DNA of 64,000 bases from Dudresnaya verticillata (lineage: Eukaryota), in contig OZ374564.1 of assembly GCA_977862235.1 (NCBI GenBank), positions 2,666,001 to 2,730,000 of the forward strand, in the 5' to 3' direction. The notes beneath the pieces are model-generated. The model was not told the DNA's origin. It was given only the letters and a program-made list of their open reading frames with translations, and searched no databases. Numbering within the stretch: position 1 is the stretch's first letter; every line of letters starts with the position of its first letter. Below are positions 41,067-63,458 of the stretch, one piece after another. The translations under genes and the position numbers were made by a program.

Positions 41067-41089
41067 CGACGACGACGGCGACGACGACG

Positions 41090-41121
<32 letters not shown>

Positions 41122-41531: not shown

Positions 41532-44500
41532 ATGAACGGTCTTAACGGAGGTGATGGGGTCCAGGAGTCGGAGTTGAAGCTCGAGGAATATGGCTTACGT
41601 CTTATTCCGGAGGTCGCGGAGCTTCTGTGCGTCGTATGCCAGCATGCCGTATTCTTCGGTGTGCAAGGACAGGACAATCTCTTCAGGCATTTGCAGAAGT
41701 GTCAGCCGTGGAAACGGGTCACCCGCATCGAATCGAAGGAAGTGTACAAGTCGTGGGATACCGTCAAGAGGGCCTGTGTGCGCACGGCTTCTGAAGAGGA
41801 TTACCATGTGTACATTGGGAGCTCAGTTCGAAGCTCTTCTCGAAGAGCCGTGCGCAGGATTCCATTTTTAAGAGTTATGGAGTGCATTCCTTGCCCTCAA
41901 TGTTCGTTCTTGTCTTTGTCTTCTCCATCGTTGAAGAAACATTATGACGCCGAACATAACTCTTCTGGAAAGTCCATAAGTCTTGCGGAGATCAAGGGCC
42001 TCGGAGGTGTAAAGTGCCAGAAGCTGTTTAAGGGAACTGGCACAGGAAATCCGTTTCTACTAAAGGATGGCGGAGCAGCGGAGTGTACCGGGAATGGAGA
42101 AGCCCGGGCAAGCGGGGAAGGTTCATCTCATGTCCAGCTTCTATTGCACGAATTGAGCGAGGCCAGGAAAGGAAGGATGAAGGTAGAAGAGCCGGAAGAG
42201 AAGGACGTGAGGAGAATGGGTCGTTTTGCAAGTTGCACGAGGCCAGATTTGAAGCTCGAGCAGCTGCATCTCAGCATGGAGGAGGCTTCCAGGTTGAGCG
42301 GAGATGCCTGCCGCGGAGAGAAGGTTTTTGACTAAGATGAAGTCGAGCTGAAGAAGTGGCTGACAGAAGCCGTTCTTTCCGTATTCCAGCATGGCCGTCG
42401 CTGCTCACAGAGGCCCAATATGACGATGTCCAGGGTAATGTTCGCTGTTCGAGCACCTACTGGTGCGACGGGGAGCCAAAAGGTCGAGTTTGCCTGGGTA
42501 GAGAGGCAGTCCGAGAAGAGGTATGCCTCCTTCGTGTCTCGTGGAGCGTTAGCAATTCTACGCATGATTAATGCGTCTCGGGAAGGTGAGGAGCTCATCG
42601 CCAGTGAAGAATTACGCTCTGCCTGTGAGAAGGTGATGGAGGTGTATCGTGAAGAGACTCAGGAAGAACCGGAAGGCGCCGTAAAAATACGGCGCTGTCC
42701 GACGGGACCGTCCGAAAGTATAGTGGCGATGCACGCTTTGCTGAGAGCTTTGTTGTATGAAAGGGTGAGCGTGGATGAAGGCAGCCACTTCTGTGCTGCT
42801 CACGTCCTAACAACCTGTCTTTGTGTGAAGCGTGCGGGAGGGGGGGTTACATTTTCTGAGGGCAGGGATCTGTCTCCATTTCTTGCTGCACTCGCCTATG
42901 CGAGTTCTTGCTGCGCTTTCATCGACATATGTAGCGTTGAGAAGGAGGGTACTTGTGATGAGGAGTTGGCCAGGGTGGAGTTGAGGCATCAAGCCGGCGG
43001 GAGTTTAGGGATACATTTTCTCCAGTCCCTTTGCTTGCAGGCTCGACGGTTTCGGAATGAAGAGTACTCCAGGAACACATGGCTTCCATGTGACGATCCT
43101 GAGCACGTGGGCAAGTGCTGCGGGTACGTGGAGGGGCTTCACATGAGCCCTGATGAAATTGGTATTTGTGTGAAGAAGATGCAAAAGGAGGCGGTGAGCC
43201 TAATGTTCGACCCAACTGGTATTCTCTGCGGGGTAGAACTGCCAAAGGACTTTCAGAAACGCCTCTCGAATATGGTAGACGACACCAGGAAAGAAGACAT
43301 TCCGTATGGATTCATGGAAGATGAGCGGAATGCTGAGATTGTCAGAGAATGCCGCGATCTCGTCGATTCTGCGGTGAGAAAGATGGAATCATTAGACGAA
43401 CGAGCATTCGAGAAACGCGCAAGGGTGATGCTATCGAAACTAAGGAAGTTCCATGTACTCATGGTAGCCTGTTTGCATCTGGCGGGTGGTAATGTCTGTC
43501 GCGGTCCGGAGCTTGGGTTCTTGGCCGTGAGAAATACGGTCAGCGGACCACGTGGGATTCAACTCCCGGGTGGCCCCCGAGTTGCTGTAATTCCAAGTTA
43601 CGACAAGACAAGGAACATGAAGAGGGGGAGAATGCGTGTCATTAGCAAGCATCCTGATGTCGTTACGAGCAACCTGGTCAAATTGGCGATTCTCGTTGGG
43701 ATGGAGTTCAGGCTAGCGTTGTCCCGACTTGTCAGTAACAGGGAGTCAGGGCGTGCGGCCGCGGTCTACGAAGATGGGGCAATGGACTATCTCATGCCAA
43801 CGGCTAGTGCACGATCGGGGTGCCTGCAGCTCGCGGGGAACATGTGGAAGAGTTTTGGTCTGCCTGAAGAATATGGGGCGGAGAAACATCGACAGTGGTT
43901 TGGTGGATATGCGACCGACAAGGCCAATACGGACGAGAAGTTCCGTTACGTCGTGAAGATATTGAATGGTTTCAACAAGGGAGATTCGGATGCTGCTGCG
44001 CTGAATAGTGGAGACCTTGGAAGTGTGATGCAGGTGCAGGGAGCACACTCTGTGCATATCGCGAGAACTCTGTATGGAGCTTGCGCGCCGAACATTGCCG
44101 GTGGCGGTGAGGTAGATGATCGGAACATGAAGCAGTTCAAGCAAGTATCTGACTGCTGGCTCGCAGATTGCGGCTTGGACAAGAACTTTGATTGGAACAA
44201 ACTCCAGGGTGGCGATGAAGAAGGAGAAGGGCGTTCCCGATTGAGTCGGGTTGTGCAGGCGCGAACCGTTTCGGGTGTCAAACGCAGACTCTTCTCTAGC
44301 GGAAGCGGGACAGGAAGCGTGTCGAAACCGGAGAGCGCCGTAATTTTACGGCCGCTTCCGGAAAATTCAGCTGTTCCGAGAGATGCATCAGAGCCGGAGA
44401 GTACCGGAGGATTACGGTGCTGTTCGCCTGTGGATTTTTCAAGGCAAGCCTCCAAACCGGAGAGCGCCGTAGGATTACGGTGCGGTCCGGCCGTGGATGT

Positions 44501-47216
44501 TCCCAGACAAACCTCCGAACCGGATGGCACCGTAGGATTACGGTGCCTTCCGATTCCTAAACATTGTGATTCGGCGGGGCAAGCAAGCGAAGTTGAAGAC
44601 GCCGTAGAAGTATGGCCGCCTCCAGAAACGGGAATTGGAGAGGAAAGAGAGTCGCAGGAGCAAGGAAGGGATGTAGAGAGCGCTGATGGACCCAGTGGTC
44701 CCGGATTGGGAACTGGAGGTGGCGGAAAGGGTGTGAAAAGAGCGATGTCGGGAGACCTGGCTGGAGCCGTACTCCCACGTGCACGCAAGCAGAAGCTTCA
44801 AGGACAGGAGGCGTTGAATGAAGGGGAAGAGAGCAAAGGTGCGGAAAGTGGGAGCGCCGGGGTGTTGGACGGCAATGGGCATGGTCTCCGACTGGATGGG
44901 TGCGATGTTTCTGAGATGAGTCGAGAAGAGATGGCTGATCTATTAAGGAAGTGTTTGGCGACAATCTCGGAATCGGAGCAGAGAAAGAAGGCTTACGAGG
45001 ACGAAAAGCGGCACACCGAGAAGAGGGAAAGCGATAATATTATAGGATTGGGTGATGAACTCATGTCAGATGCAGCACGTCGCCGCTCTGATAAGGATAA
45101 CCGTACAGTCGAAGCTCGCAAAGCAGAGCGTGAGGCTTCAATTGCACGGCGTGTACAGGAATGCCTTGCGCACGCTGTAGGGGACCGTGATGCCGAGTTC
45201 AAAAGCGAAGAACAGAAGCTGGCAATGGAACTTGTATTGCGCAAAGAGAGTGACGCATTAATCGTGCTGAGGACAGGAGGTGGGAAAACCGCCGTTGTTT
45301 TTGGGCCCGCTTCAAGTGAACAAGGAGTGACTATTTTTATATGCCCCCTTCGATCACTACGGGAGGAGATCAAGTTGCGATGTGATGATATCAGGCTGCC
45401 CGTTGTCGATATTGAAGACTTGGACAACAACGAAGTTGAGAAGCGCTTGATGCCGAGAGGTATAATCCTTGCGTCCCCTGAGATCGTGTCCTGTCGAAAG
45501 TATAATTCGGTGCTGAGGAAACTGTACGGAGAAGGGAAGTTGATGCGTGTTGTTGTTGATGAGGCTCACATCGTTGTTCTGAGTGCCCACTATCGCAACT
45601 GTATGTTACGCATGCGGCACGCAAGGCCGGATGGTGTCCAGGTACCGATCATTATGATGACGGCCACTGCACCGCCACATTTGGAGAACCGTATAATAGC
45701 TGGTAACGGAGCCGTGGTCGGGAATACGAAGGTGATTCGTGGCAGCCTCCGTCGGGACAACATAATGTATACCGTGGAGCGGCTTTCGAAAACGACTGAC
45801 GAGGAAGTGGGGCACTGTATTAGACACGCTGTCACCCATGCAGTGAGTGAAGCGTTTATTGTGCGTGGTGGCGGCAAAGTTCTCTTGTGTGTGCTTACGA
45901 AGGGCGAGGCTGATCAAGCTCATGAACTTCTCGAGCGGAGCAGAATGTTCTCGGGAACAGCGCATATTATAATATGTAAGTATCACAGTGGAATGAGTGT
46001 TGAAGCACGGCGGAACAGTGTGGCCGAATGGGGCCGAAACGGGGCAGCACAGCGCTCCGTGTGTGTAATGGTGGCCACGGAAGGATTTGGTACAGGTATC
46101 GATGCCCCCGACGTGGCTCAGACTATAATTGTTGGGAGCAGCCGATCGCTAATGGAGCTGTATCAAGTGGGTGGGCGTGTTGGTCGGGATGGGAAACCAG
46201 GGAGCGTTAGTGTACTGTACCATCATGAGTATGCTGACCGCGCCAACGTGAAGGACACGGAGTCACTGATCGCCTTGAAACGGTTTCAACGGTGGGCCGA
46301 GGACACGAGAAAGTGTCGTGTCAAGGAACTTGAGCAGTATTTGGGATGCCCTGAGGAGCCTTCGGATTGCAGACAACGTGTGTGGGAGAGGACGGAATCT
46401 TACATTCGGTGTTGTGATTACTGCGCTAGGTTTTCTCCGGTAGTGGAAGCAGCGGAATCGCCGAAAAATGACGAATTGGACGAGTCGTCATCTGATGACA
46501 CCGGTTCTTCACAGCAGAGCCCGTCCTTACGTCCAGCAAGGAGTTTGCATGAGGTTGGTGGTGGAATAACCGAGCAAACGGCAAATACAGGGAGACAGAG
46601 ACAGACGGAAGAAACTGTGCAGTGCACCCCGGAGGATAGCGCGGTGGCTGCAGTTCGCACGGCGAGTGGAGCAGGCGAAGCAGTTGAAGAACTGCGGGAT
46701 CTTGCCGTCAAGCTGGCTGGTGTGTGCCCGCCTTGCTTTGGTCGTACGAGGCCCGGTGACAAGGTGTCAATCCGTGCCTGCCGGAACAGCCAGCATTCGA
46801 GGAGCTGCTATTTTCGGCAGTGTATACGGTGCATGTCCGGGGGGCACGATGCAGCCCAGTGCACTGTACGGCCTTGGAAGGCACGCGGCGGTGTGTTCAG
46901 CGCTGGTTGTTCGGAGTGCTCGATTCGAACGTTTGGTTCGAAGAAGCTCCATGTAGGGAGCGGCAGTCCGAGGCGAGGACAGAACGAGTATGGGTCGTCG
47001 GAACGTTGCCCGTTCTTCAGACCCGTACAGCTAGCGATGGCTTTTTGGAGCCACGAGGAGAGGCGCACGGAAATGCTTGCGCATCGTGGGATGCGACGTT
47101 TCAGGAGATGCTCAAGTTTGAAGGCTTTCTGTGAGGAGCTTGTGTTGGACAAGCCTGGGTGGTGCCCAGGAATTCTTGAGTTCTCTCGGTATGCTGTGGA
47201 AGTGTTTGATTTGTAG
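41532..47216 (+). pseudogene. OrsD/DUF3505-like Zn domain + tyrosine-recombinase-like domain + RecQ-type SF2 helicase + Cys/His knuckle fusion; single in-frame stop at 42333
   Basis: ORFs 41532-42335 and 42420-47216 are in the same frame with only one TAA between them. N-terminus: LLCVVCQHAV..RHL and CPQC..KKHYDAEH. YR-like: CRGPEL (R at 43500), YDKT (K at 43605), EKHRQ (R at 43890), QGAHS..ARTLY (H at 44046, Y at 44073). Helicase: LRTGGGKT, VVVDEAH, MTATAPP, YHSGM, VATEGFGTGID, QVGGRVGRDG, CR..CCDYC. C-terminus: CIRCMSGGHDAAQC. The helicase call is firm; the YR call is moderate. Confidence 0.85.
44328..44625. repeat. Cluster B: five in-frame copies of the 34-bp palindrome inside the CDS
   Basis: Starts at 44328, 44394, 44457, 44520 and 44592 (spacing 66/63/63/72). 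Translated as PESAVILRP, PESTGGLRC, PESAVGLRC, PDGTVGLRC and VEDAVEVWP. Confidence 0.9.
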
Positions 47217-47491: not shown

Positions 47492-47985
47492 CCGGAAGCC
47501 ACCGTAAATTTACGAGGGTTGCTGGTTGCCATGTCTCCACGTCCTCGAGATTAGCGTACGGGTGAACCGGAAGCCCTTGTAAACTTAAGATGACTTCCGT
47601 TGTATCTTGAACTATTGTAGAAGCGTCTTGAAGTGAAGTAGAGCCTAGGAGGGTGCAGTGCGTAGAGCGGGGGCGGCGTTGGAGCGGATAGCACCGTATA
47701 ATTACGGTTCTATTCGGTTTAAACGTGTAGAGCTGGAGCGGCGTTGGAGCGGATAGCACCGTATAATTACGGTGCTATCCGGTGGAGGAGTGTAGAGTAT
47801 GTAGAGCTAGGGCGGTGTTGGATCGGATAGCACCGTATAATTACGGTGCTATCCGGTTGAAGAGTGTAGAGTATGTAGAGTTGGGAACGCGTTGGAGCGG
47901 AGAGGACCGTATAATTACAGTGCTCTATGGTTTGAGGGTGTAGAGTATGTGGAGCTGGGACGGCATTCGACTGGAGAGCACCGTA
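47492..47985. repeat. Cluster C: palindrome array downstream of the helicase gene (65-74-bp units)
   Basis: Degenerate copies at 47492 and 47567; clear copies at 47684, 47749, 47823 and 47897 (spacer TATAATTA); left half-site at 47971. Confidence 0.93.
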
Positions 47986-48773
47986 CATTAATTCATTGAG
48001 CGGGAAGGCATCGCAATGTACGCGCTTCTTGCAACACGTGTCCACGGGTACACGCCCTACACTCTGTGCACAGTGTACCAACTGTAAACTCTGTACACGT
48101 GTGGCATCTTGGCGAGTACGTGTGTGAGGTGTTTCGGGTTGAAGTTTTGGCGCGGAGAAGGTCGCCGTGTGGGCATCGCAATGGCATAACTTGTCGAGAC
48201 GGATGAGGGTTTTTTGGTGGCGACGGTAGAGGCGGCTAACGTCGGGTGGCTTCTTGTGCACACTGGTGTGCAGTCGAGCTAGCACAAACCCACCTTCAAG
48301 TTGGAGTCGTGCTCGTGCGATGGGGAGTGTGCGAGGGGTCGGGGGCTGAGGAATTGGACGAGAAGTACGGCGGTTGCTGCTGTCAGTTGCGCGTCCCATG
48401 ATCAGCTAGGGGTGGAAGCGCCATGCGTGGACGGAGAGCATTGCGTCGACGGATTTAGGGTGTACGTGAGTCTAGATTTTGATGGGAAATTGCCTGAAAG
48501 TTTGAGATTGACTGTGCAGGCCCGTGCTCTCGACTGTCACCTCACCACCCCACCACCGTATCCGAACCCCGTCCGGCATCACCTGATGCGCCCCGTATCG
48601 TCAAACATACCGCTGCTGCAGATTTATGCCGCAAAGTGCGGTCTCTTCTCGCCCTTCCGAGTATTTGAGCGCTTCACTGAAGGTTTACACCGACAGGATC
48701 ACCCCATTGACCGTCGTTTGGCCCGCTAATCCCTGAAGCAGATGGGTGGCTTGTCTCCGGCAGCGCCAAGGAA

Positions 48774-49757
48774 ATGTATGTGCCTGCAAACTGGCTAAGA
48801 GCGTTTGGGAGTGGCAAGGAACTGCTCGAAATTGGCCTGGATCAGTCGGGAGACGGGTTTATCACGCGCTTTCGGCATAGCGTGCGAAGGAGGCTTGTTA
48901 CGGACCGTATGGCGATACCAGGACAATCAAGGTATGCTGTGCTGTTCTCAGGGGGTATCGATTGAATGGTCATTGCGCGAGTGCTTGATGAATGCTTGAC
49001 TCCCGGGGAGGGTATTACGTTGATCAATGTTGCTTTGGGCGCCGACTCGCAGGCTGTGGCGCAGTGTCCCGATCGACTAAGCGCAATTTCGGGATGCGAA
49101 GAGCTGCGTAAGCTGTCCGAGACGGACAGAGTCTTCGACTTATGCTGCGTGGACGTCGCCCCGGAACAGGTGGATGAGACGCTTGAAAAGCAGGTACGTT
49201 TGCTTGTGCACCCGTGCGACCAGGCCATGGACGCGTCGATAGGCACCGCGATCTGGCTCACAGCGCGTGCGGATGGGAGTTCACATAGCGGGCTGCAGGG
49301 AACAGCGAAGGAGGCACGAATTTTGTTCAGCGGGCTCGGCGCGGACGAGCTAATGGGCGGGTACAAGGGCCGACACCGGACGATATACCGGACGGAGGGC
49401 GTGAACGGTGTGCTGCGAGAGATGGACGCTGATTTGAGCAGACCGTGGTTTCGGAACCTAGGTAGGGACGACCGGCTTGTCGCAGACCATGGCAAGGAGG
49501 TCCGTCATCCGTTTCTGGATGAGGACCTCATCGAGTTTGTAACTGGCCTCCCTTTGGAGCGGCACGTTTGTGACCTCTCAAGACCAGATGGAATTGGCGA
49601 TAAGCACCTGCTCAGGCGCGCCGCAATAGTTCTTGGTTTGTCGGCTGAGACGGCAAGCGGTTCGAAGCGAGTGGGTCACGGAGCAAGCAGGTCATTGAGC
49701 GCAAAGGTTCTTGTTGAACATTTGGAGGCAGTTTTTGGCTTAAGCCAAAGTCTCTAA
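48774..49757 (+). pseudogene. Asparagine synthetase domain-containing (ASNSD1-like) C-terminal fragment
   Basis: AVLFSGGID*MVIA with an in-frame TGA at 48963, LFSGLGADELMGGY, RNLGRDDR and RHPFLDE. No N-terminal glutaminase domain is visible. Confidence 0.82.
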
Positions 49758-50108
49758 AGTGCGCCAATGAGTCCCATTGCCCGTCAACCGACGAAGACTA
49801 CGAAACAGGCGGCTCAACACGCATTAACGCGAACTTGTCCGCCACCCGGCTGGCTCACATCCGCATAGAGTGCTTGTCATAGCCTAGACACTAGTACCCC
49901 AGACTCGCAGCAAGTGAGAGGAAGCATTGACGAATTCGATTGCGGCGAACGTTGCGCGTGGTACCGTTGAAGGTTGCTATTCGATCCAAATACTCGTCAG
50001 ATTGGGCTTCACTGCCCAACCGCACAACATATCGCGCCATTAAGCTGGTATTGAAAAAACCGTATTGATCAAGCTGTAAATGTTGGAAAGGAGCTGTCAC
50101 AGACGCTG

Positions 50109-51324
50109 ATGGAGTGTAAGAACACATTGAGAGTTACGCTGCTTCCACTGTCGACAATCGATACTACAGCTCAGGGAAAAATTCGCTCTCTGGATACAAT
50201 CACTCTGAAGGAAAGGTCAGCGACGTTAAGTTCGCTAGAGCAGGCCGCGCTGGACATCGAACAGATCCTCCAACTCAACATCTTGAAAATGTTTCCGATA
50301 TTGAAGAGGCAATATCAACGCTTTTACAAAGCAGTAGATTCCAGAGCACTTGTGTTCCGCGACACAGTGCGCAGCCTGCTTCCCCAGGTGAGGGACGGAA
50401 ACACAGATCAGGCCGAAGTCATGCGCGATCTTGAAAAACCCATCTGCGTTGCAAAACACCAGGCAGAAGTAGCTCAGGACTTTATTGAGGCGAAGCAACA
50501 GGACTGCCGAGTTCTCGATGTGACTACTGCGAATCTCTTCAAGCATGGCTTCGAAGACTACCGCGATTCAGTAGATAATCTTGCTTCCGTCGTATCAGAG
50601 AATAGCAAACCGCGTCTATTGCTTTCTTTCGCTGGGATTAAGGCGACACACAGATTTGAGAATCAACTCCCCCCGTGCTTCTCATGCTTCTGGAGAGAGC
50701 ATATCGAGCTCTGAGACGTCGCCTGAAGGGGACCACTCGGCCAGTGACATTGATGACGAAGATGAGGAGTGGTTTGAGGACAAGGCGAGTTTGGAGTATT
50801 TGGGAAGATCCTGTGAGGTTTTGCGAAAGCTGAGGCATAACAATCGTCTAGCTGAGTTCGAGGCCTTATATGGAGTGACGACTGCTGGTCGAGCATTCCG
50901 CGCTGACGGCCGTAAAATGAAGAGGACTCGTATCGGAGATATTGTCCTAGAGGCAAACGGACGACGACAAATTGTCACTCCTGTTATGGTTGGACCTCCG
51001 AATCTTTCATGCACCGTTAACAAGCAGACTGTCAAAGTCGCATGGCATCCTACTGATAGCGAAGTTCTTCCTGCAACGGCGTTTCTAATCTCCTATCAAC
51101 CTACACGGAATGCCGCTCTCGACGAATTTGATCAAGCCGTCGCAGCCAATGAGCCAGTCGAGTACTTGGTGCAGCCTGATGGGGACAGCGTCCTTGCTTC
51201 TGCGTCACAGATGCTGTGCATCTGGAAGGCGTCTTTGACAACGCACGCCACTTTGTTGATCACGCGCTGGGAGCATCAGAAGATCCTGCAACATGCCAGT
51301 GCAGACCGGTTTGGCGTGCAGTAG
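50109..51324 (+). pseudogene. Unidentified, probably frameshifted coding remnant
   Basis: Two overlapping ORFs (201 and 247 aa) with protein-like composition (helical part, acidic SDIDDEDEEW). No motif recognised. Confidence 0.35.
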
Positions 51325-51644
51325 CGTGATGTCCTGAATGTGTCGAAAGAGCTCGTCAGTTGTGTATCCAAAAGCATGTCTCCGTGTGTGTAATGTGACG
51401 TGGTCGACCCGGAACTGGCGCTGTCGACCAAGGAGAGCAAGTCGGCTGCGCTGCTGTTTTACTTGGGTGTTGTGCTGCGCCCGACCAGCGACGCTAGCCA
51501 GAAATTGACCGAACGGGATTTGGTTCGTGTGTCGTCCATCTTCGCGGTGGAGATGGGAATGGTAGCCGTGCTAATGAAACCCACCGAGGCAATTGAACGA
51601 ATGAGGGTTGATGACGCAGAACGCTAGCTGGGGGGCGTCGAGCG

Positions 51645-51980
51645 CAGAAGCACGCGGCTCGCCATCGCGGCAAGGTCAAGTCTTTTCCGAGGGATGACCC
51701 CAAGAATCCGTGCCACCTCACCGCCTTCATGGTCTACAAGGCCGGTACGACCCAAATCGTCCGCGATGTTAACAGGCCAGGTTCCAAGCTGCACAAGAAG
51801 GATGTTGTCGAGGCCGTGACTGTCACTGAAACTCCACCAGTCGTGGCCATCGGCGTTGTGGGGCTCACTGAAACCCCATACGAACTGCGCTCGATGACGA
51901 CCGTTTGAGCCGAGCATCTCTCTGAGGAGGTCAAACGTCGTTTCTACAAGAGCTGGTATCGCAGCAAGAAGAAGACATTT
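51645..51980 (+). pseudogene. RPL3: 60S ribosomal protein L3 N-terminal fragment
   Basis: Manual translation: [60 protein letters not shown]...TTV*AEHLSEEVKRRFYKSWYRSKKKTF. Stop at 51906; start and C-terminal two-thirds are missing. Confidence 0.93.
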
Positions 51981-52299
51981 CTGCATCTTGCTTTTCTACT
52001 TTCGCTGTGAATATTTTGGCAATATTCCTGGGAAGGCGCTGCCATGCCGTCAGCGACTCCGCAGCAGGCCCAAACGGAGTGTTAGTTCGGAGCCGGGCTT
52101 CCTCTGGCCGAACAACGCGATCGAATATGGGTGTACCAGTATCCTGCAGTCGATATCCTCATCATGCTTAGAAGGAAGGCCCAGACTCTGTCTAGGATTG
52201 CACTTGGGAGGCCGCGGTCATTTGACTTCTTCCCACGGATCGTCGGGAAGCGAGGCCCGGATTGTCCTGGACAGTTGGCATGCCCGGGCTCCACTCTGC

Positions 52300-52680
52300 A
52301 TCGGACTGGCGACCGATAGCTTCTGCATGCGTATCAGAATGCTTGCAGCTTGCGGATCGAATCCGTGCTCATCCGCAGTTGCGCTCTTCAACGACCTGTC
52401 AGACCGCCTCTGTTCGGTCTTGGATGCCGCAGAGCTGTGTCGCAATGTCCACCCGAACCTGGGGTTTGTCCGGGACGCAGATGACACATTTCTGCAAGTC
52501 TCTTCAGTTCTGCAGGAGCTCAACGCGGACTAAACCCTGTATGATCCCCTAGATCGACTGTATGACGATCACCTACGCCATCTTCGCAACGCCGCCGATC
52601 GTGCGAGATTCGTATCTGATGAGGACGTGTTTATGGCGAGATTTCTCAAGCACGAGTTTGAACGTGGCGGTATAGCTCTT
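52300..52680 (+). pseudogene. Mitochondrial intermediate peptidase-like (peptidase M3) N-terminal fragment
   Basis: FNDLSDRLCSVLDAAELCRNVHP...LQELNAD*TLY...FLKHEFERGGIAL resembles the MIP/Oct1 N-terminal helices. In-frame stop at 52531. Confidence 0.7.
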
Positions 52681-52697
52681 GGGCGTCGTGACCCGCG

Positions 52698-52935
52698 ACC
52701 TGGCACGTTTACTCAATGGAGTGGACTCCGCACAGAATTGCCTTCTTTCATGACGGTAGGCAGATTGCCGATGCATATGACAAACCGCGCAACCCCACGA
52801 AACGCAACTGGCCATTTGATGGGGAAACCCCTTTCTACCTCATTATCAACAACGCCATACACCCGAGCTGGGGAACTGAGCCTCAAAACCTTGAATCGCA
52901 TGTACTGGAAGTTGATTATATTCATTTCAGAGAGT
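52698..52935 (+). pseudogene. GH16 glycoside hydrolase C-terminal fragment
   Basis: WHVYSMEWTPHRIAFFHDG...WPFDGETPFYLIINNA...LEVDYI. The catalytic ExDxxE region is absent. Confidence 0.8.
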
Positions 52936-55004
52936 ATCCGATGCAGCAATGGTGCGCTCTCCTGCTTGTGTACCTGCCACGGCACTGGTTTGGTCCAGTC
53001 TGTCAGTTTGGTCTATCTGTGTCCAGTACTGCACTGTAGTACGCAAGACCGGCCGACTGCCGTCACAAGAGAAAAGTGTGCCCTTATTCAAACCATTGAA
53101 CCACATCGGACGTTTTACTGTTTCAGTCCACTACCCTCTCACGGTCAGCAAGGGCTGAGCAGACCGGCAAATAAGATGGTGAAGGGCGCCGAGCGAACAA
53201 ACGAAGCGCGAAACTTGTCGAAGAAGAAGCAGCTCTGCAGCAGCTACAAGAAGTGCGGCGCACTGTAGTAAGAAAAGAGCGTACGTCTGTTCTGGGAACA
53301 GAAGTCCAACACGAGATATCGAGACATTGGGATATGGTTGTCACACACGAACGAGTTGTAAATGGCACTCTATTACACAGCACTGTCGTCGAGCACTACT
53401 TGCACATGGTATGCGCAGTGTTGAGTGCGTGAGAGCGACGAGAACGCTACTTGTATATGCATGAGGATAAAAGATGTCGGAGGCGAGGCTATATCGACAA
53501 CAATGCACTGACGCTAACATGGAGTACTAATCTAAGCGGACTGCATGGTGGAGATGGAGATTGCAGAGCAGACGTGGTGGCTTAGTGGATGAGGAAGCGG
53601 CAGAAAGCCAACTCGAGAACGACTTAGTTCTGGCTGCTTCATGCAAGCAGCTTAGGATGCGCTGGAACATGCTGTTCCGAACTATCTACAAACTTCATCG
53701 AACAATCTTGGCATCACCAGCGGTGACGATTCGATACACAGCATGGGGGCTCGGGACCAGGTAGCAGATGAGGTGCTTTGGATGACGGAGCTAGAAGGGC
53801 TCGTGAATGGCTGGTGCCGCAACTATAGGAGTCGGTTCGGATTATAGCGTGTGCTCCAGGGCTTGGAGGAGCTTGTTCCACTCTTTTGTTTCTAGCATGA
53901 TGCTCAGGCGCCGGTTGGAGTACAATGCAGTGGTGCTGCAGCTATTTGAGCCGTCTTGGAACCTCTATTCGCCCCTGAAGCACCACAAGCCCGGAGTCAA
54001 GAGCATCAATAGGAGGGCACTGTGCAATAGAAAGGTGGTATCGCGGACTGCCTGGGGCTTTCACAGTCTCTCTGTGGCTGCGTCGGTTCCCCCGTGTCGA
54101 CTCGAACTGACAAACAGTATCGCAGCCAGAATACAATGGTAGTCAGCTCTGACCCCGTAATAACGGGCTATTCTGGCAGTTGTTCTCGCAAAGGATGGAA
54201 AGGGAGGCTTGCTACGTTCCTTCTATCCGCACAGTAGTAGCAGAAACTTGCTTGAAAGGTGACTCTGCGTATGTGCGGCCTGCGATGTGAGGATCTGTGA
54301 TGATCTTGTCGTCAGTCTGCAGTTCTGACAAAACCAGCAATGGCTGCTCGTGTAACATATCCGCCACAACTACGCAAAATTGGCCATTGATCAATCGTGC
54401 ATAAGTTCCTCTTCATTCATGGTTGCAGCACGTCCAATGTTAATTGAAAAGCCGTGCGAGTGAGCTTCTGGAAGACACGACTGTGCGGTACGATTGCAAA
54501 ACCTGATATCAACGGTAACACGTTTACAAGTGTGTTCACGCTGCTCAAAAACGAAACTCGTCGAGCTGCGACTCAGCGAACATTCGGACGCCTTAGGACT
54601 TAGCCTTGTTTCAACTCTTAGCGAATACAACATATTATATTGCCAGAGCCACGGCATCCTAGAGGGACAAGTCTAGAGGTACCCCTAAAAGGCTGCAACT
54701 AGAGTTCGAAGCATTTAGATGGTGCTGAGGGGCATAGCTGAAAAGCCGCAGTCGCTCTTGTTGAGAACTCGATGGGGAGTCTCCGTTTACTCGTAGGTAT
54801 TTCTGATATGGCGTGCGGTACTGGGAACTGTTATCTACCGTGCTGTATTTATCTTGACAGCCAATGTGTCTCACTCACGCTCACGCATCGACTTTTGTGT
54901 CTGCACATGTCAACCAATTTTGAGGTTGCATGTTACGTTGGCGTTGCAACCCGACTGAGCAGTTCCGCCCCCCATTGGTTGCGCCCTGGGTGATCATGAC
55001 CGGC

Positions 55005-55270
55005 GTTGGGGTGTGTGTGTGTCCGTGTGTGTGTGGGTGTTGTAACGGGCGTTGCCGTTTTTTGCGGCGGAAGCGGGCGTTGCGGTATGTGTGTGTGTGC
55101 GCGGTAGTGTGTGGGTGTTGCGCAAGAAGCGGGGGGTGAGGGATATGTGCGTGCCGGTGTGTGTGGGTTTTGCGGAAGAAGCGGGCGGTGAGGTGTATGT
55201 TCGTGCGGGTGTGTGTGGGTGTTGCTGCGGAAGCGGGCGTTGCGGTGTGTTTGTGTGTGTGCGTGTTTGA
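55005..55270 (+). repeat. GT-rich degenerate minisatellite
   Basis: (GT)n runs alternating with GAAGCGGG(C/G)G motifs, about 4 units. Confidence 0.8.
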
Positions 55271-56052
55271 GGCGCGATGGCCTGTTGGCGGTTTGTATCG
55301 GTGGGGGCGTGGCAGGCTGGAGCAGCGGCACGCATGCCTGCCGTTTTGTGGGAGCCGGGGTCAATGGGCGCGCGAAGATAGTAACGGAACGCTCAACCGG
55401 TCATCAAAAGTAGCCAAGGGCGGCGAGGAGTGCGGCGCACAAATACAAAATAATGAAAAGCAGCCACGGAGGGGAGCCCACGTGTCTTGCAGAGGCGAGC
55501 TTTGAAAATCCAGATCACCGACGACACTCGACGCCGGTTTGGGGCGGAACATAAGAGCGCCGAGCGTGCACTGTCCACCCCCCCAAGCGCCGACTCTTTT
55601 CCCAACCACTGCGCCGCGACTTCGCCCACCCCAACGCCCCGCGCTCATCTCAACTCGCCCACTCTCGCAGCGCCGCGCTCCCTCCTCCCCGACCCGACAC
55701 CGCAAATGCCGGCGCCCTGCAACGCGAAAGTCTGCTCTGCACGCCCTTCCCGCCCATCTCGCGCACTGCCACAACTTTCGCACGCTACACCCCGCCTTGC
55801 TTCCGCCGCGCGCAAAACGCCTGTGCAGTCCGCCCGCGCACACTCCGAGGCGAAAGCGCATCACTGCGGCGCAAGCGCATCACCGTTACGTGCGGGGGCG
55901 CAAGTTATCGTTGCCGACAGGGCCGCCGCGACGCGACTACTTTCCCGTACCGCGTGCGAACAGCGCGAAAACGACACCCTCCATCCTACCGTTCGCCACA
56001 GCGAATCCGGATCCGATCCGGATCCGATCCGGATTCAGAACCGGATTTAGAA

Positions 56053-56468
56053 CCGGATAGCACCGTAATATTACGGTGCTCTCCGACGCGAGGCCCTAAC
56101 CGCCGCAACCGAATCCGCGAACGGCTCACCGCCGTGCGCGTCAAGAACCGGATAGCACCGTAATCCTACGGCGCCATCTGGCGAGCGGTTCACCGCCGCG
56201 CGCGTCAAGAACCGGATAGCACCGTAATCCTACGGCGCCATCCGGCGAGCGGTTCACCGCCGCGCGTGTCAAGAACCGGACAGCACCGTAATCCTACGGC
56301 GCCATCCGGCGAACGGCTCACCGCCGCGCCCATCAAGAACCGGATAGCACCGTAATCTTACGGAGCCATCCGGCACAAGCCACTAACCGCCGCAGCGGTA
56401 TCCGCGAACGCCTCATCGCCGCGCGCGTCAAGAACCGGATAGCGTCGTAGTCTTACGGTGCTCTCCGG
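56053..56468. repeat. Cluster D: palindrome array (64-bp core units) immediately upstream of the orphan ORF
   Basis: Copies start at 56053, 56148, 56212, 56276, 56340 and 56435; spacers TAATATTA, TAATCCTA, TAATCTTA and TAGTCTTA. Confidence 0.95.
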
Positions 56469-56485
56469 CTCCAGTCTCGACAAGG

Positions 56486-59400
56486 ATGGCCAATAGTCCG
56501 AGGAGAGGGCGAGGAGGGAAGAATCGAGGGAAGCTGCCATCTGTCCGTGGTAGGCGGCCACGAGGAGTAACCGCCGTGCCTCCTGCAGCCGACCCAAATG
56601 ATACTCCTCCGGCAGGCGAAGCTGACCCAACTGTTACTCCTCCGGCAGGGGACCCAACTGTTGACAGCAGCTCTAAAGCAAGGTCGAAGGCGACACCACC
56701 GAAGGAGGTTTCTGAGGGGGTAGCAGGTGACGCCCCCCCATCTGTACGGAAGCCTTCTTCAAATTTGAAGAAAGCATCCGAAACCGCGATTGGCCCACGA
56801 CTACGGAGCGAGACAACTGCAACGGCCCCTCCGCAGTCTTGCAGCCAGGATGATTCATCTCTGACGCCTGCAGTAGCGGGTAAGAGCACAGGGACGCCCA
56901 AGAAGAATTCTGGGGAGCCGGGAACGAAGGCGTCCTCGGGTGGAGGGGCCGAGAAACGAGGTGGTGATCCCACATCGAAACCTCCCCAAAAAGCGGGTAA
57001 GGTCAAGACCGCACTCCCAAGAAACGTGGGAAAAGGCGATGAAGGCAGAAGTCCGCCTGTATCGCGCAAACCAGTACCGCGCAAACCAGCAACCCGCGAT
57101 TTTGTGGAGAAGGGGTCGTCAGAAGTCGGCAAATCCGATGGAGCTGTGCACCCCTCACCGCCGCCGAAAGGGACCCCAAGGGCTCCGCCCGGGCCGCCAG
57201 AAGCGGCTCCGAGTGCGCCGCCAAAAGCGGCCCCGAGTGCGGCCCCGAGTGCGCCGCCAAAAGCCGTCCCGAGTGCCCCAGCTGCTGCTACAGCTGCGAA
57301 ATCCTCTCAATCAGGTCAAGGGGTGCGACCGGCATCGGGCGAAGAGTCACCAGCGATTGCAAAAGCTGCGGGGAAACATCCAAAGCCCGCCGCCCCAACC
57401 CAACCAACGCGGCGGAATAGGGCATCCGATGGAAACCTCCCTAGCACGGGAAGTGCAACTACCGGTAAGACGAGAAACAGCCGAGCCCCTTCTGGACTGC
57501 GCAGTCAAGCTGCGCACAGTGACGCAGGCAAAATGCCGGTATCAAGTAAGGGTCCTCCAACCAGTGCTGGCGAACCAGTGTACTACAACGGGAAATTTAC
57601 CGAATCGGTCACCGGCGTTGGAGAGGCTTCTGCGACGGGCACCACAATGTCGATGAAGTCTAAAATGCCCCAGCCTGCAATCGTTCTCGAGTATTGGGAC
57701 AGTTGGAGGATGGTGAACCGGCCTGGTTCAGATCTTACACAGTTATTCAAGCAGCCAATTGGACATGCTCTATACCCGAATAATGGAGATGGGCAGAAGT
57801 GGCCCGTCGCAATACCACTGTCAAACATTCGGATAGCAACGGCGAACAATATTCGTGAAGTGCAAGAATCGTTTCTAAGTGGCGGGGATGGAGAGGCAAG
57901 GTGGCATGAGGGTTTAGGCGCTGCAACCCTGATGACGACCGCAGCTGCGCTTGGAATTCAAGTCCCTGACGAGTATCTTGAGAGGATACAAATTGCTGAG
58001 AAGTCCGCTCCAGGGAACCCGGCTACAGGACCAATTCACCTCTATCGTTACAAGAAGAGGTACCGGCCCCCCCTTCCAGACGCTTGGAAGCTTCCGCCAT
58101 TTGGCGATGCATATGTCCCGCCCGATGCCCGCATTGGAATCGAGGATGGTAACGTGAGACTGTCCGCTGCCGCGATCACGGGCGTTGAAAAAGTTCGAGC
58201 GCACGTTTCTGTTTTTGTTATCCCTCAACAGCAGCTTGAGGGGATGACCGGTGATCCGTGTGATATCGCTGCTGCTGGGAACTGGCTGGAAGGGATGATG
58301 ACCACAGTTGCAAACAGGCTTAACGAGGCAACTGCCAGTATTGGTACGACCACTCCTGTTCAGATGGCCCTGTCGTGTGCCCGACTGCGTACAGGTACCG
58401 CCCGGCAGCTCCCGTCTCGTGTATGGATGCCACAGTCGGATAGGATCGGTTCGAAGAACAAGACCCTAAGCGAGGTCAGGGCAAAACTCAGGGAGGCTCT
58501 CGACGATATAATCGTCATCTCTGATGAAGAAGATTGTGCAGAACACTCCGATGAAGACAAGCAGGCCAGTCAAGAGAGAAACGACACAGAAGGAGCTGAT
58601 ACGGCCCCGGTGGGCCCGGAAGCGGCCGCCGTAAATTTACCAGGCACTCGGTCCCATGGCGCCTCTACCCTCGTCCTGCCTATTCCAGGCGAGGATGAAG
58701 CTATGTCATACATAGGTACCATCCGAGAAGCTTCGAAGCAAAGGAACAGCGAGGCACCTCCCCCTGCCCGTACTGAAGCTGGTTGCCAGGATCCCGCGGG
58801 CATCAAACCGCGGGAAAAGAAGAACTATGAGATAGCCCCTTGGTCTGGCGTGATCCTGTCGACAAACACACCGGGATATGAGGAGAGTCAGCCGCGGGTA
58901 CCGAATGCAAGCGAGTATCTGGCCGGGGCTTTTGTAGCAGGTGAACGCCACGGTATAGTTGCGCGTTCTGTGATTGGAGATTTGAAACCCGCAGAGAAGC
59001 GCAAGAGGAATGAAATGCGGAAGAAGCGGTCGGGTGAGAATGGTCTTTCCGCGGAACAGTCTGAGGCTATGAAACGCCTTCGAGTTCAGACGCATGGCGA
59101 GGAAGGAAGCCGAGCAGTCCCTGTGGAGGACCTAGAAGAACATCAGAAAGCCGCTGTGGAAGAGGCGAAGGAAAAGAAGACCAGTGACAGACAGTCGTTC
59201 TTGGAGATGGCCAAGGAGAACTCTGATTTCTTGTTCGTGTGCGGCGGTGTTGAGATAGTCGAGAACAAGATTCAGCATCGCTGTATGGCGTGTTGGCTAG
59301 ACTATCAGTTGATTCGGCATGATAAGGCATGCACGTGGGCCCTGGAAGTGCTGGATGCACGTGATTCTCCGGTGGAGCTTGGTGGTGTCAAGCGGCCTTT

Positions 59401-61153
59401 CGTGCTTCCGTACGAGGGCGGGAGGTACCGTTGGATGAAGACGGAGATCAACAAGGCGTGCGACATGTTGTTCACCCCGCTCCACCATGCTTCCGGTCGT
59501 CGCCTGCTCGGTGAGGGCACAGCTCGCAGGTACAAGAATGACGATGTCGCCCTGTACAACATCATGGAGGGCGAAAGGCGTCTGGTTCGCAGTGAAGTCA
59601 CAGGCGTAGCGATGGTGACGGCAGTCCAGCGCCTCGATGCCTACAACGAAGCGACGGAGACGGGGAAGGCGGCCATTGGAGGATATCGACGGGCAAAGCC
59701 GTCGACAAATCCAGAGAAGTGTCTGGAGGAGCCGCAGTCCGAACACTACTACTACCAGGAGTCAAAGTTCTCGGCCCAGACCGCCTTATTAGCAGAGGCT
59801 GCAAAACTTGGGGCGAGGGCGGCAGTTGCAGCGACACGGCTTTGCTGTGGGCTTCTCGGTCTTCGTTCAGTGAACTGCATACTCCTGGCCGGGGAATGCG
59901 AGAGTAGGTTACCCCGACGGACGTCGGAGGCATATGAGTGGTTTGCTATTAACGTTTGGCATCGTCGCCCCCAGACGAGACATATGTTGCATAGGCGGGT
60001 GAGAAGTGGGACTGGAAGTACGACTGGAGCTGGGTGTGTACTAAGAATCGTGAACAAGGAGCAGATGGCCTGGGGGATGCACAGTCTCGATAATCACATG
60101 TGTGCCATTGTGGTGATGGCTCTGCCTGGGCTTCAGAAGGTCCTTCGCGATCTGGTATTTACGGACAAGTATGATGTGGACTTGTGGGCTGGCACGAAGC
60201 AGAGTGGGATGCGTGTTAAGGACCCTGTCGACCGGGCCCGAATGGGTGGAAGCCGCTTTGACTATGATGTCTTTCGTGTTCTGGAGAAAGCAGCTGGTCG
60301 ATACAAGTGGTTGGAGGACGCCTGGCATGATTTGGAGATTCCCTCGCGTATTGCCCGTGTGCTGTACGCTATTCAGACTCGCGACCCGTGCGTTGGGGAC
60401 TTGATGTCCCAATGCATCATTCTCTCGCAGAGACCTGATGATGAAGCCCACCAATCGAAGGTGGTGATGCTTGAATTTGTCAACCAGGACGAGTTTAAGA
60501 AAGACCGCGACATAAACGTGAGGCTGACTGACAGGCTTCCGGAAAGAAGATCTCTGGGGCCAGGAGGTGGGGCATCTGGAGAGGTGATGTCGAATCTTTC
60601 CGGGGGCGGCGGGAGTCGAAGGGGTAGTAAAGGACGTAGGGATAGCAGTAGTAGCGCTGGTCGCGGTGGTGGAGGCGTGGGTGGTGGAGGCGGAAGTGGT
60701 GGTGGGCGTAAGAGAAACGTTTCTTGGCGCCGCGCGCCGCACAACACCGTCGGAAGCATAACTGTTGGCAGAGCTACTGAGGCGCTGCGTGTGGCAGATG
60801 CTGAAGAGCGGCAGAAGAATTTTACTATGGTTCTTGCTAGTGCTTTCGACTTGTGTAGAACGCACCCGGAACTGATTGACAATCACGATCTGGACAAGCG
60901 TGCCGAATTACTTGAAGGGATTCTGAATCAACCAGTAGATGGACTGCCGGACATCAAGAAGGAGTTGCCGGAACCTGAAGAGTTTATGGACGAGGTTCAA
61001 ATTGTGCATGAGCATGTTATGACTCAAGTGCAGTCTGCCAGTCAGTCTGCCACTCAAGCCGAGTCCCGGAAGGAAGGGCGAAAGCAAGCAGAAGATCATG
61101 CAAGGGGTGGTATCGATAGTGATGAGGAGTCTTCAGAGAATGAATCCACGTAG
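56486..61153 (+). CDS. Large hypothetical protein (1555 aa), no recognised domain
   Basis: Uninterrupted 4.67-kb ORF. Pro/Ala/Lys-rich low-complexity N-terminus, globular-looking middle with RCMACW, Gly-rich patch and acidic tail. Confidence 0.85.
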   Translation: MANSPRRGRGGKNRGKLPSVRGRRPRGVTAVPPAADPNDTPPAGEADPTVTPPAGDPTVDSSSKARSKATPPKEVSEGVAGDAPPSVRKPSSNLKKASETAIGPRLRSETTATAPPQSCSQDDSSLTPAVAGKSTGTPKKNSGEPGTKASSGGGAEKRGGDPTSKPPQKAGKVKTALPRNVGKGDEGRSPPVSRKPVPRKPATRDFVEKGSSEVGKSDGAVHPSPPPKGTPRAPPGPPEAAPSAPPKAAPSAAPSAPPKAVPSAPAAATAAKSSQSGQGVRPASGEESPAIAKAAGKHPKPAAPTQPTRRNRASDGNLPSTGSATTGKTRNSRAPSGLRSQAAHSDAGKMPVSSKGPPTSAGEPVYYNGKFTESVTGVGEASATGTTMSMKSKMPQPAIVLEYWDSWRMVNRPGSDLTQLFKQPIGHALYPNNGDGQKWPVAIPLSNIRIATANNIREVQESFLSGGDGEARWHEGLGAATLMTTAAALGIQVPDEYLERIQIAEKSAPGNPATGPIHLYRYKKRYRPPLPDAWKLPPFGDAYVPPDARIGIEDGNVRLSAAAITGVEKVRAHVSVFVIPQQQLEGMTGDPCDIAAAGNWLEGMMTTVANRLNEATASIGTTTPVQMALSCARLRTGTARQLPSRVWMPQSDRIGSKNKTLSEVRAKLREALDDIIVISDEEDCAEHSDEDKQASQERNDTEGADTAPVGPEAAAVNLPGTRSHGASTLVLPIPGEDEAMSYIGTIREASKQRNSEAPPPARTEAGCQDPAGIKPREKKNYEIAPWSGVILSTNTPGYEESQPRVPNASEYLAGAFVAGERHGIVARSVIGDLKPAEKRKRNEMRKKRSGENGLSAEQSEAMKRLRVQTHGEEGSRAVPVEDLEEHQKAAVEEAKEKKTSDRQSFLEMAKENSDFLFVCGGVEIVENKIQHRCMACWLDYQLIRHDKACTWALEVLDARDSPVELGGVKRPFVLPYEGGRYRWMKTEINKACDMLFTPLHHASGRRLLGEGTARRYKNDDVALYNIMEGERRLVRSEVTGVAMVTAVQRLDAYNEATETGKAAIGGYRRAKPSTNPEKCLEEPQSEHYYYQESKFSAQTALLAEAAKLGARAAVAATRLCCGLLGLRSVNCILLAGECESRLPRRTSEAYEWFAINVWHRRPQTRHMLHRRVRSGTGSTTGAGCVLRIVNKEQMAWGMHSLDNHMCAIVVMALPGLQKVLRDLVFTDKYDVDLWAGTKQSGMRVKDPVDRARMGGSRFDYDVFRVLEKAAGRYKWLEDAWHDLEIPSRIARVLYAIQTRDPCVGDLMSQCIILSQRPDDEAHQSKVVMLEFVNQDEFKKDRDINVRLTDRLPERRSLGPGGGASGEVMSNLSGGGGSRRGSKGRRDSSSSAGRGGGGVGGGGGSGGGRKRNVSWRRAPHNTVGSITVGRATEALRVADAEERQKNFTMVLASAFDLCRTHPELIDNHDLDKRAELLEGILNQPVDGLPDIKKELPEPEEFMDEVQIVHEHVMTQVQSASQSATQAESRKEGRKQAEDHARGGIDSDEESSENEST

Positions 61154-61684
61154 GTTGCAACGCTTCGGGCGCCTCCTGCAGTGAACCTGCTAACCAGTAA
61201 AGTTCAAACGTGTACATTCTATCAGCTGATGCGCCTAGTGAGAGGGAGAGTTACGAACGGTCTGTAGACATGTTGGTATCCGACAGACAAGGACAATACA
61301 TTTACTAATATTGGATCTCGGAAAGGACCGATATAGCTGGGCGGAGACGTATGGGGAATTGTAGCAAAGTGACATGGTTAGCGATTGGACTTGCGTCTCA
61401 GCCTGGACCTCGGAGGCGGAGGCGGCAGGACATGCTTTGCGCGGTCAATAGCAAGGAATCTTTGTTCGAGTCTCTGGAATGCTTCTTCTCTGGATAATTT
61501 GGGTTTGTTTGGCTGCTCTTGCCGAGTTCTGGCTGGTCGAGGTGCGGTTTCCTTTCGGGCAGGTGTGTTTTGCGTTCTTGCACGACGGGAAGTCTTGGAG
61601 ATACGACCTCGAGAATGACGGCGGTGGGACTTCACAGGTGGTTTCCTTGGAATGGAGGAGCGAAATCTTCGCCGCGAGTCCTGT

Positions 61685-62430
61685 GTGAAATCAAAATCGG
61701 AGCTAGAGTCAGTGTCTACGTCAGCCGGACCGGGGGCAACACTTCGAGGCATTCTTGAGGGGGTAGGTATGAAAGGACTGGATGTGTGGATGGCGGTGTC
61801 GCGGTGAGAGAACTGTAGGGGGAAGCAAACCTATGAATAGCAATTCAGAGCCGAGCAGTTGATGAAACAGCAGTACATCTTGAAATTGAAAATTTGTAAT
61901 CGGGGTAATGAAGCACTCTTAATAAATCACCAATCTCCGGAGAGCTCGTACGTACCATCGATGTTTAATCGATTCAGTCGACAATGGAGGTTGTCTATTC
62001 GAAAGCACTGTAATCAAGCGACACATTTACGTCATTTACGTCTACGTCTTCATTTGCGGAAACGAACGCAGGTAATTGTCCCGGTGTTGGATACTAGGGA
62101 AGAGGTTAGAGGTTAGGGGATTGGAGGGCCGTATCAATGGGGTAATAAGTGGACGCAGGACTTCTGCGTGAAGTCAAAATCAGAGTCGGAGTCCTATTTA
62201 CAAGTTCGCAGAGCCGCGCGCAACTCATCGAAGAATTCTTGATGGAGTGAGCTAAGTTTCGACTGGAAGTGATGTGTGTGTTGCAGGCCCGACCCAGCGA
62301 GGCACCGCCTGATGAAACAACGGTGCATTTCGAAATTCAAAAATTTGTAATCAGAGCAATGAAGCACTCTTCAGTAATTGCACTCGTCAGTAATCGCCAT
62401 TTCCGGGTTTCTACAGAACGTACCGTCAAT
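61685..62430. repeat. Diverged direct duplication (offset about 450-480 bp)
   Basis: GTGAA.TCAAAATC.GAG...GAGTC at 61686/62168; GATGAAACA...GAAATT.AAAATTTGTAATC...AATGAAGCACTCTT at 61861/62311. Confidence 0.75.
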
Positions 62431-62562
62431 TTAGTCGAGATTGTAGTCTGTCTCCTTGCAAGCCCTCTTTCAAACACAGCGAGACGACATCTCCCTCTGC
62501 AGAATTGAGGGAGTCCACATCTCCCTTTGCAGAATTGAACGCAGTTCGCTATCCCGCTTTGA

Positions 62563-63458
62563 CCGGAAAGGACCGTAACCTTACGGTGCCATCCGGTTGT
62601 GCATGTTTAACAAGCTATCACCGGATAGGACCGTAATCTTACGGTGCCATCCGTTTATGCATACTTAGCAAGCCATGACCGGATAGGACCGTAATCTTAC
62701 GGTGCCATCCGGTTGTGCATACCTAGTATCCGATGACCGGATAGGACCGTAACCTTACGGTGCCATCCGTTTATGCATACTTAGCAAACCATGACCGGAT
62801 AGGACCGTAACCTTACGGTGCTATCCGGTTGTGGATGCTTAAGAAGCTATCATCGGATAGGACCGTAATCTTACGGTGCCCTCCGCTTGGGCATACTTAG
62901 CAGGCTATCACCAGATAGGACTGTAGTAGTACGGTGCCATCCGTTTATGCATACTTAGCAAGCTATGACCGGTTAGGACCGAAATATTACGATGCTATCC
63001 GGTTGTGCATACTTAGACCGCTATGAGCGAATAGGACCGTAATATGACAGTGCCATCCTGTTGCCTAGCAATCTCTGACTGGATAGGACCGTAATCCTAC
63101 AGTGCCATCCGGTTGTGCACACTTAGCAAGCTATGCCCGGATAGGACCGTAATATGACAGTGCCATCCGTTTGTGCGCACTTAGCAAACTATGCCCGGAT
63201 AGGGCCGTAATATGACAGTGCCATCCGGTTGCGCATACCTAGCAAGCTCTGACTGGATAGGACCGTAACCGGATAGGACCGTAATATGACAGTGGCATCC
63301 GGTTGCGCATGCCTAGCAAGTTCTGACTGGATAGGACGGTAATCCTAAAGTACCATCCGGTTGTGCATACCTAGCAAGCTATGACCGGATAGGAACGTAA
63401 CCTTACGGTGCCATCCGGTTGTGCATGCTTAACAAGCTATCACCGGATAGGACCGTAA
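62563..63458. repeat. Cluster E: 58-bp tandem array = 34-bp palindrome + 24-bp linker
   Basis: 15 full copies (62563, 62621, 62679, 62737, 62795, 62853, 62911, 62969, 63027, 63079, 63137, 63195, 63269, 63327, 63385) and left half-sites at 63253 and 63443. Linker consensus TTGTGCATACTTAGCAAGCTATGA. Confidence 0.97.

Follow-up and report, generated by a model that had tools for sequence, protein, structure and literature searches.

Why does the same 34-bp palindrome recur in several repeat arrays of one locus, each array having linkers of its own? This question is raised by a stretch of 64,000 nucleotides from Dudresnaya verticillata (assembly GCA_977862235.1, contig OZ374564.1, positions 2,666,001 to 2,730,000), hereafter called the window; all positions and counts refer to it, and statements on distribution hold within it. 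The palindrome (the core) occurs around a gene for a protein that joins a domain with a predicted tyrosine recombinase (YR) fold to a RecQ-type helicase, and around a second long open reading frame (ORF2). Judging from sequence features and structure models, we see an even chance that the core is a lox-like recognition or crossover site of this YR-RecQ enzyme, and that the arrays arose from single sites which were tandemly duplicated with adjoining DNA.

The 34-bp core and its arrays

A scan for both 13-bp arms returned 34 full cores. Arrays C, D and E account for 25 of them (4, 6 and 15, respectively), and nine lie further upstream (39930-44553; cluster A, a solo copy at 42669 and array B). 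The initial annotation had described a palindrome shared by C, D and E in the context of unrelated linkers. This is confirmed, and the family is larger than noted. All 34 cores score 27-53 bits with a weight matrix, and the top score of 30 simulated backgrounds was 11.1 bits. With the matrix, two further copies came up, one weak but real (18.1 bits) and the other borderline (9.0 bits); no core was detected in 1-39929 (39.9 kb) or between 48.0 and 56.0 kb. A half-site scan revealed four lone half-sites (starting at 41347, 47971, 63253 and 63443), all of which adjoin arrays and are intact through the inner TA; 0.07 such matches are expected by chance per 64 kb. The 34 full copies and the four lone halves are confined to 39.9-63.5 kb, so that the family spans about 23.5 kb, in five clusters. 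The exact core pattern had no match in metagenome contigs and none in viral contigs. The copies are arranged as follows:

39930 to 41437: cluster A, with full cores at 39930, 40481, 41292 and 41404 and a lone right half-site (41347-41361)
42669 to 42702: solo core inside the YR-helicase gene, in frame, encoding loop residues 82-95 (predicted local distance difference test, pLDDT, <50)
44328 to 44553: array B, four cores with a period of 66/63/63, in frame, in the linker between the YR and helicase domains
47492 to 47600: the weak and the borderline copy, starting at 47492 and 47567
47663 to 47985: array C, four cores with a period of 65/74/74
48000 to 56000: core-free stretch between C and D, with pieces of host-like genes
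56003 to 56468: CCGGAT/GATCC reiterations (56003-56050), then array D, six cores with a period of 95/64/64/64/95
62563 to 63457: array E, 15 cores with six spacer types and a period of 58 in 12 of 14 intervals

The unit lengths of the initial annotation hold for D (64, flanked by intervals of 95), for two of the three intervals in C (about 74) and for all but two in E (58). Helical phasing of the array periods was not significant (p about 0.2). The cores of cluster A are interspersed with purine-rich tandem repeats of 20-21 bp. Array C terminates in a lone left half-site (47971-47985) that breaks off at the inner TA. Array E has two lone left half-sites (63253 and 63443), the latter closing the array at the inner TA. 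Two of eight array ends (C and E) are thus located at a site centre, and the four lone halves also break off there; 2/8 is within chance, and hairpin processing would give the same. A core-like palindrome in which CCGTA is fused to TACGG, devoid of the four central bases, is found at 41262-41289, 2 bp before the 41292 site.

The initial annotation assumed a variable centre of 8 bp. Only 4 bp vary, and the inner TA is part of the arm: its T is kept in 66 and its A in 64 of 68 half-sites. Because this TA is nearly fixed, the site is described as 15-4-15. The alternative reading as 13-8-13 fits lox-type geometry, though the symmetry extends 2 bp further inward. YR sites are described in the main text of PMC3212892 as having arms of 11-13 bp and a spacer of 6-8 bp.

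Per-position conservation and compensatory arm changes had been proposed as a check, and both were computed. Distinct changes at half-site positions 1 to 15 number 14, 2, 3, 4, 2, 14, 9, 3, 7, 9, 3, 5, 1, 2 and 1. They cluster at positions 1, 6, 7, 9 and 10, while CGGA, G8 and CCGTA are spared. This unevenness is significant even when position 1 is left out (p=0.00025). Compensatory changes among the 33 distinct sites are at chance level (6 observed, 6.3 expected). Taken together, this points to a protein that reads each half of the duplex palindrome, with pairing not being kept. We infer that the constraint on the core is sequence-specific and imposed by a protein, instead of being pairing-specific.

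Mean core identity is 0.79 between C and D, 0.76 between C and E and 0.80 between D and E (overall between-array range 73-81%). When the linkers are formally aligned, local scores are at shuffle level in five of six comparisons (C-E 10.0 vs 10.0 shuffled; D-E 9.0 vs 9.8). The exception is a 7-bp inverted match between the C and D linkers, which scores 12.3 (shuffled 10.7±0.5, maximum 12.1; p=0.037, uncorrected). It is read as chance, because the null model treats near-identical units as independent and because only one of the six comparisons is affected. Within arrays, variants were counted in regular-period units only (E 12/15, C 2/4, D 3/6, B 2/4). The arms have 27 distinct variants in 120 positions and the linkers have 45 in 123 (p=0.046). 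The core is indeed kept better than the linkers, but inside arrays this is a modest effect. Unrelated linkers and steadier arms support the view that the arrays were amplified separately, each one together with its flank. This part of the earlier proposal, that the arrays were amplified independently, can be retained; the cores themselves are not independent, since they appear to have been copied or converted between arrays (see below).

This exchange is indicated by the 4-bp centres. All four cores of array C carry TATAATTA, while TAATCCTA is found in three of the six D cores. The 15 cores of array E have TAACCTTA (4), TAATATGA (4), TAATCTTA (3), TAATCCTA (2) and two others (1 each). A private spacer is thus seen in C only; three centres are common to D and E, and the ATAT centre is common to A, D and E. 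In array B, three of four cores carry a D/E centre in inverted orientation, and when D cores are inverted, those of B deviate from them at only 3-4 of 34 positions. Centres common to different clusters amount to seven shared pairs, with 1.7 being expected (p=0.006). The shared centres and the near-identity of B and D therefore argue that cores passed from cluster to cluster by copying or conversion, without the DNA that flanks them, which in turn weakens a role of spacer classes as array-specific codes. The earlier statement that each array favours its own spacer applies strictly to C; the favourite of D makes up just half of that array and is also present in E. That spacer classes define which sites can pair, as had been suggested, is unsupported by this pattern of sharing and by the inverted D centre in B. 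A linkage test around the centre covered 11 of the 15 E units and was uninformative about a break there.

Matched overlaps are needed by Cre and Flp, while the integrases of Tn916 and of integrons are exceptions. If YR rules apply, the centre matches predict deletion between D and E, inversion between B and D/E, and an isolated array C. A telomere-resolvase site was also considered and is unlikely, as no class of centre other than ATAT is self-complementary.

The predicted YR-RecQ protein and its relatives

The gene located among the sites has the following features:

41532 to 47216, plus strand: YR-RecQ helicase gene, a single frame of 1,894 codons that is interrupted by one in-frame TAA (42333-42335)
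43041 to 44192, plus strand: predicted tyrosine recombinase catalytic domain, with R361, K396, R491, H543 and Y552 (P0001 numbering)
45210 to 46193, plus strand: RecQ-type helicase domain (DEAD and Helicase_C), best matches being RecQ models

The protein consists of a C2H2/OrsD region, the YR-like middle domain, a disordered linker, the RecQ helicase and a Cys/His-rich tail. The OrsD match is weak (E 0.00075, below the cut-off); it is present in the window protein and in 9 of 20 family members. Five full cores are within the gene, all in the sole stop-free frame of the core. One is placed in a low-confidence loop and four are in the variable linker between the YR and helicase domains. Open reading frames of the window are long and unspliced, the host being a eukaryote. 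Of ten window open reading frames looked up in the protein collection, none was present there.

The middle domain was modeled with a pLDDT of 75. In a fold search against 48,161 chains, ranks 1-12 are all YR or topoisomerase IB. Matches include XerA (Z 8.8, root-mean-square deviation (rmsd) 3.2, 162 residues aligned) and Cre (Z 8.1, rmsd 5.2, 268 aligned). Over 52 aligned rows, the catalytic-type residues are well-conserved (R in 50, K in 51, R in 43, H in 45 and Y in 44), the misses being mostly gaps. The five residues coincide with the catalytic R, K, R, H and Y of 18 bacterial integrases, which were taken from 18 of 30 loci (E 0.0017, against 0.28 for the reversed control). Assignment of a YR fold with the R-K-R-H-Y residues kept is made with moderate confidence. 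The YR context that the initial annotation had presumed is thereby provided, as a YR-fold gene with catalytic residues sits among the sites.

A full HMMER scan identified 116 relatives of the middle domain, many of which share the whole protein layout. Word-index homolog searches missed the YR-helicase family. The same domain is found in a "recQ" protein from Schizosaccharomyces octosporus (E 1.4e-29), with R, K, R, H and Y kept, and it is common to the window protein, P0121 and metagenome locus L002. It is absent from all 41 bacterial RecQ loci. The nearest Atlas clusters are mostly fungal. A helicase tree of 68 rows was computed with FastTree; filtering by coverage had left 67 of 161 candidates, and P0121 was added by hand. 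The window protein belongs to a group of 20 family rows and one long-branch bacterial row (Shimodaira-Hasegawa support 100). Schizosaccharomyces, L001 and L002 form a group separate from this clade, in a tree with long branches and a midpoint root.

We infer that the middle domain corresponds to what is called the "TLH domain", which precedes the helicase in proteins of the fungal telomere-linked helicase (TLH) family. The TLH proteins of Magnaporthe oryzae and Fusarium oxysporum (TLHcr) have the same layout as the window protein (C2H2, middle domain, RecQ). According to the main text of PMC1635262, Magnaporthe TLH genes have blocks of helicase-associated repeats (HARs) on both sides; a 50-bp core with an imperfect palindrome of 23 bp is found in all units of HAR-D, and 181 bp separate the end of the HAR-CDEF block from the TLH start codon. 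Fusarium TLH units are arranged in arrays (bioRxiv 10.1101/2024.02.27.582403). The window resembles these loci in having repeats upstream and downstream of the gene and, as in HAR-D, a palindrome in a kept core. It differs in that the HARs, as far as that main text describes them, comprise nine units without relation to one another, several of which contain telomere motifs, while one 34-bp palindrome is used everywhere in the window, including inside the gene. No telomere array is present in the window, which ends 543 bp past array E.

DNA around relatives was retrieved for three metagenome loci, of which two (L001 and L002) are TLH-like and distant; none was found in viral contigs. L001 has a 99-bp tandem repeat (3015-3208) with an imperfect 14-2-14 palindrome, about 300 bp behind the distant TLH-like gene. 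This palindrome differs from the window core, and two such palindromes occurred in 0 of 40 simulations. As a parallel to the window sites, it is a hint only.

Proposed recombination and its alternatives

In the proposed mechanism, one YR monomer would bind each half of the site, via the fixed blocks CGGA, G and CCGTA, and would cut beside the centre, yielding a 6-bp overlap (A-NNNN-T). The overlap of Cre is also 6 bp. Single sites may have been tandemly duplicated locally, together with whatever DNA adjoined them. Exchange restricted to the 34 shared base pairs would keep cores alike across arrays, with linkers remaining unrelated. The region might then be a TLH-like mobile unit, copied or rearranged via its sites with the aid of its own helicase, and many of the copies in array E may be surplus and decaying.

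Several points weigh against recombination at these sites by this protein. The His of the HxxR motif is absent; the integrase His aligns with E488, for which the family consensus is s. The integrase profile gave a probability of 15.6%, Z scores near 8 are in the caution range of the fold-search tool, Foldseek returned no match at E<=0.001 (XerD at rank 15, E 0.48), and Pfam Phage_integrase matches none of 20 family members. With its in-frame stop, the gene copy is probably defective. The in-frame core peptide was found in none of the 116 homologs at up to two mismatches, and the in-gene sites are therefore recent and particular to the window lineage. Four E copies lack the inner TA of the right arm, yet have been amplified, and the variable centre of 4 bp is shorter than a usual YR overlap, the inner TA being fixed. 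L002 has no flanking palindrome repeat within about 500 bp, so that only one of the two TLH-like relatives has one. Cluster A stops 94 bp short of the YR-helicase gene's first ATG and array D 17 bp short of the ATG of ORF2, which suits operators equally.

Alternatively, the core may be a binding-only operator or an origin iteron. A dimeric element protein, either ORF2 or the helicase protein by means of its zinc fingers, would recognize it, with no strand exchange and with the 4-bp centre being unread. We consider this unlikely, although it is the most probable of the alternatives. Uneven conservation in the absence of compensation is equally expected, a 15-4-15 site is natural for a dimer, and A and D, which are directly upstream of the two start codons, each open with a near-identical TAATATTA site (2 mismatches). 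The proximity of the Magnaporthe HAR-CDEF block to its TLH start codon is similar (PMC1635262). This explanation does not account for the above-chance sharing of centres between clusters or for the copies in the coding region and downstream of both genes, and ORF2 has no recognizable DNA-binding domain. A short palindromic mobile unit, resembling a repetitive extragenic palindromic element (REP) or a miniature inverted-repeat transposable element (MITE), is improbable. It would have inserted several times and been duplicated with its flank by slippage, cores being alike due to their recent origin. Solo copies with unrelated flanks, the match of B cores to inverted D cores, and the restriction of all five in-gene copies to the only open frame and to variable loops, with homologs devoid of them, conform to such a unit. 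However, target-site duplications are lacking (<=3 bp at 9/9 sites or arrays, the same as at random positions), neutral drift is not expected to produce fixed and variable half-site blocks, and such a unit would have spared 39.9 kb of ordinary genes as well as the 8 kb between C and D. Arrays of tiny TA-flanked MITEs (right arm-linker-left arm) were rejected: the solo copies are complete palindromes, and the arrays start with a left arm.

It is very unlikely that the core acts in single-stranded DNA or RNA as a hairpin or cruciform signal (a rolling-circle origin or a terminator). For five of six tested copies, the fold, which has a loop of 4 nt, is better than that of any of 200 shuffles, and arrays C and E break off at a site centre, as a hairpin could explain. 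The remaining tested copy, from array E, folds little better than its shuffles (z -1.6), the stems of array E carry a fixed G-G mismatch, compensatory changes are not in excess, and no Rfam family matches in 37.5-64 kb.

Neighbouring sequences and comparison with known systems

Along the locus, the order is sites, YR-helicase gene, sites (C), 8 kb with pieces of host-like genes, sites (D), ORF2 and sites (E).

56486 to 61153, plus strand: ORF2, 1,555 aa, an open frame with a low-complexity N-terminus

ORF2 has no match in Pfam, NCBIfam, PHROGs, PDB sequences, plasmids or viral contigs, and the best Atlas value is 0.81. Its single-sequence structure model has a pLDDT of 30.5. A degenerate core-like stretch (58616-58652; left arm with three additional bases) is below the scan threshold and is in the same frame as the sites inside the helicase gene. 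An AT-rich stretch of 70 bp occurs twice between ORF2 and array E (61860-61927 and 62310-62378), 450 bp apart, with a GAGGTTAGAGGTTAGGGG word in between (at about 62102). The gene pieces at 48000-52000 are the C-terminal part of asparagine synthase, an open reading frame with a stonustoxin helical domain (E 1.5e-7) and a piece of ribosomal protein L3 that ends in a stop; they look like captured or decaying cargo. A GT-rich 52-bp tandem repeat (55002-55293, about 3.5 copies) is located 750 bp upstream of array D.

Immediately left of cluster A, a 403-bp inverted repeat (37924-38326 and 38669-39071; 93%) surrounds 342 bp. Each arm region has a small palindrome with GGTGCCAC / GGCACC words like those of the core arms, and no target duplication was found at 37924-39071. 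About 210 bp are common to 12203-12415 and 39309-39569 (73% over the best 158 bp). The former copy is followed by GATCC-type reiterations (12420-12590) like those preceding array D, and the region 12203-12590 may be the end of a related element. A near-perfect palindrome of 50 bp (11929-11978), downstream of a DUF7869 open reading frame (9479-10882), is unrelated to the core.

With Cre/loxP and Flp/FRT, the window shares a two-fold site of 34 bp, readable as 13-8-13 and with mostly asymmetric centres, that is adjacent to a YR-fold gene. Unlike in these systems, there are dozens of degenerate tandem sites, not two exact ones, and variation in the centre is limited to four bases; a RecQ helicase is joined to the recombinase, which lacks the HxxR His. 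Cryptons are likewise eukaryotic YR elements devoid of a reverse transcriptase. According to the main text of PMC3212892, they have terminal direct repeats of 4-6 bp and no inverted or long repeats, and the word "helicase" is absent from that text. The window YR differs in being fused to RecQ; it has no match to GCR1_C, a domain that a Crypton YR may or may not carry. CryptonF-1_cRei is given in PMC9977147 as terminating in CACCG, which also closes the 13-bp arm of the window core; this is a lead only. RecQ is found with DDE transposases in Academ and Kolobok, as described in PMC3627910 and PMC9587614. The words "recombinase" and "integrase" are absent from the main texts of PMC1635262 and bioRxiv 10.1101/2024.02.27.582403. 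A YR-RecQ fusion element or lox-like TLH repeats were not found described in the literature, with Rehmeyer et al. 2009, Repbase, subscription journals and supplements being outside the scope. The TLH layout with flanking repeat blocks is known; what appears to be new is a TLH-like unit with one lox-shaped repeat in all of its clusters.

It is tempting to speculate, although we rather doubt it, that a class of eukaryotic mobile elements not yet described uses TLH-type proteins as its transposases, with a YR-RecQ fusion acting on the element's own lox-like sites. In such an element, the arrays might tentatively be seen as bracketing the recombinase gene, the second gene and the captured host pieces as cassettes. 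Excision between D and E (centres in direct order) and inversion between B and D/E could then occur, with sites even inside the recombinase gene, a scenario that is also on the doubtful side. The function of TLH genes is called elusive in the main text of bioRxiv 10.1101/2024.02.27.582403. A family member in the midst of 34 natural variants of one lox-shaped site constitutes a testable set: a protein, a site, its tolerated positions and a predicted catalytic tyrosine. The core, as the likely own site, would give this helicase family a testable DNA substrate. If recombination does occur at these sites, TLH-like subtelomeric units would be YR elements that mobilise themselves, and a new recombinase-site pair of eukaryotic origin would be at hand.

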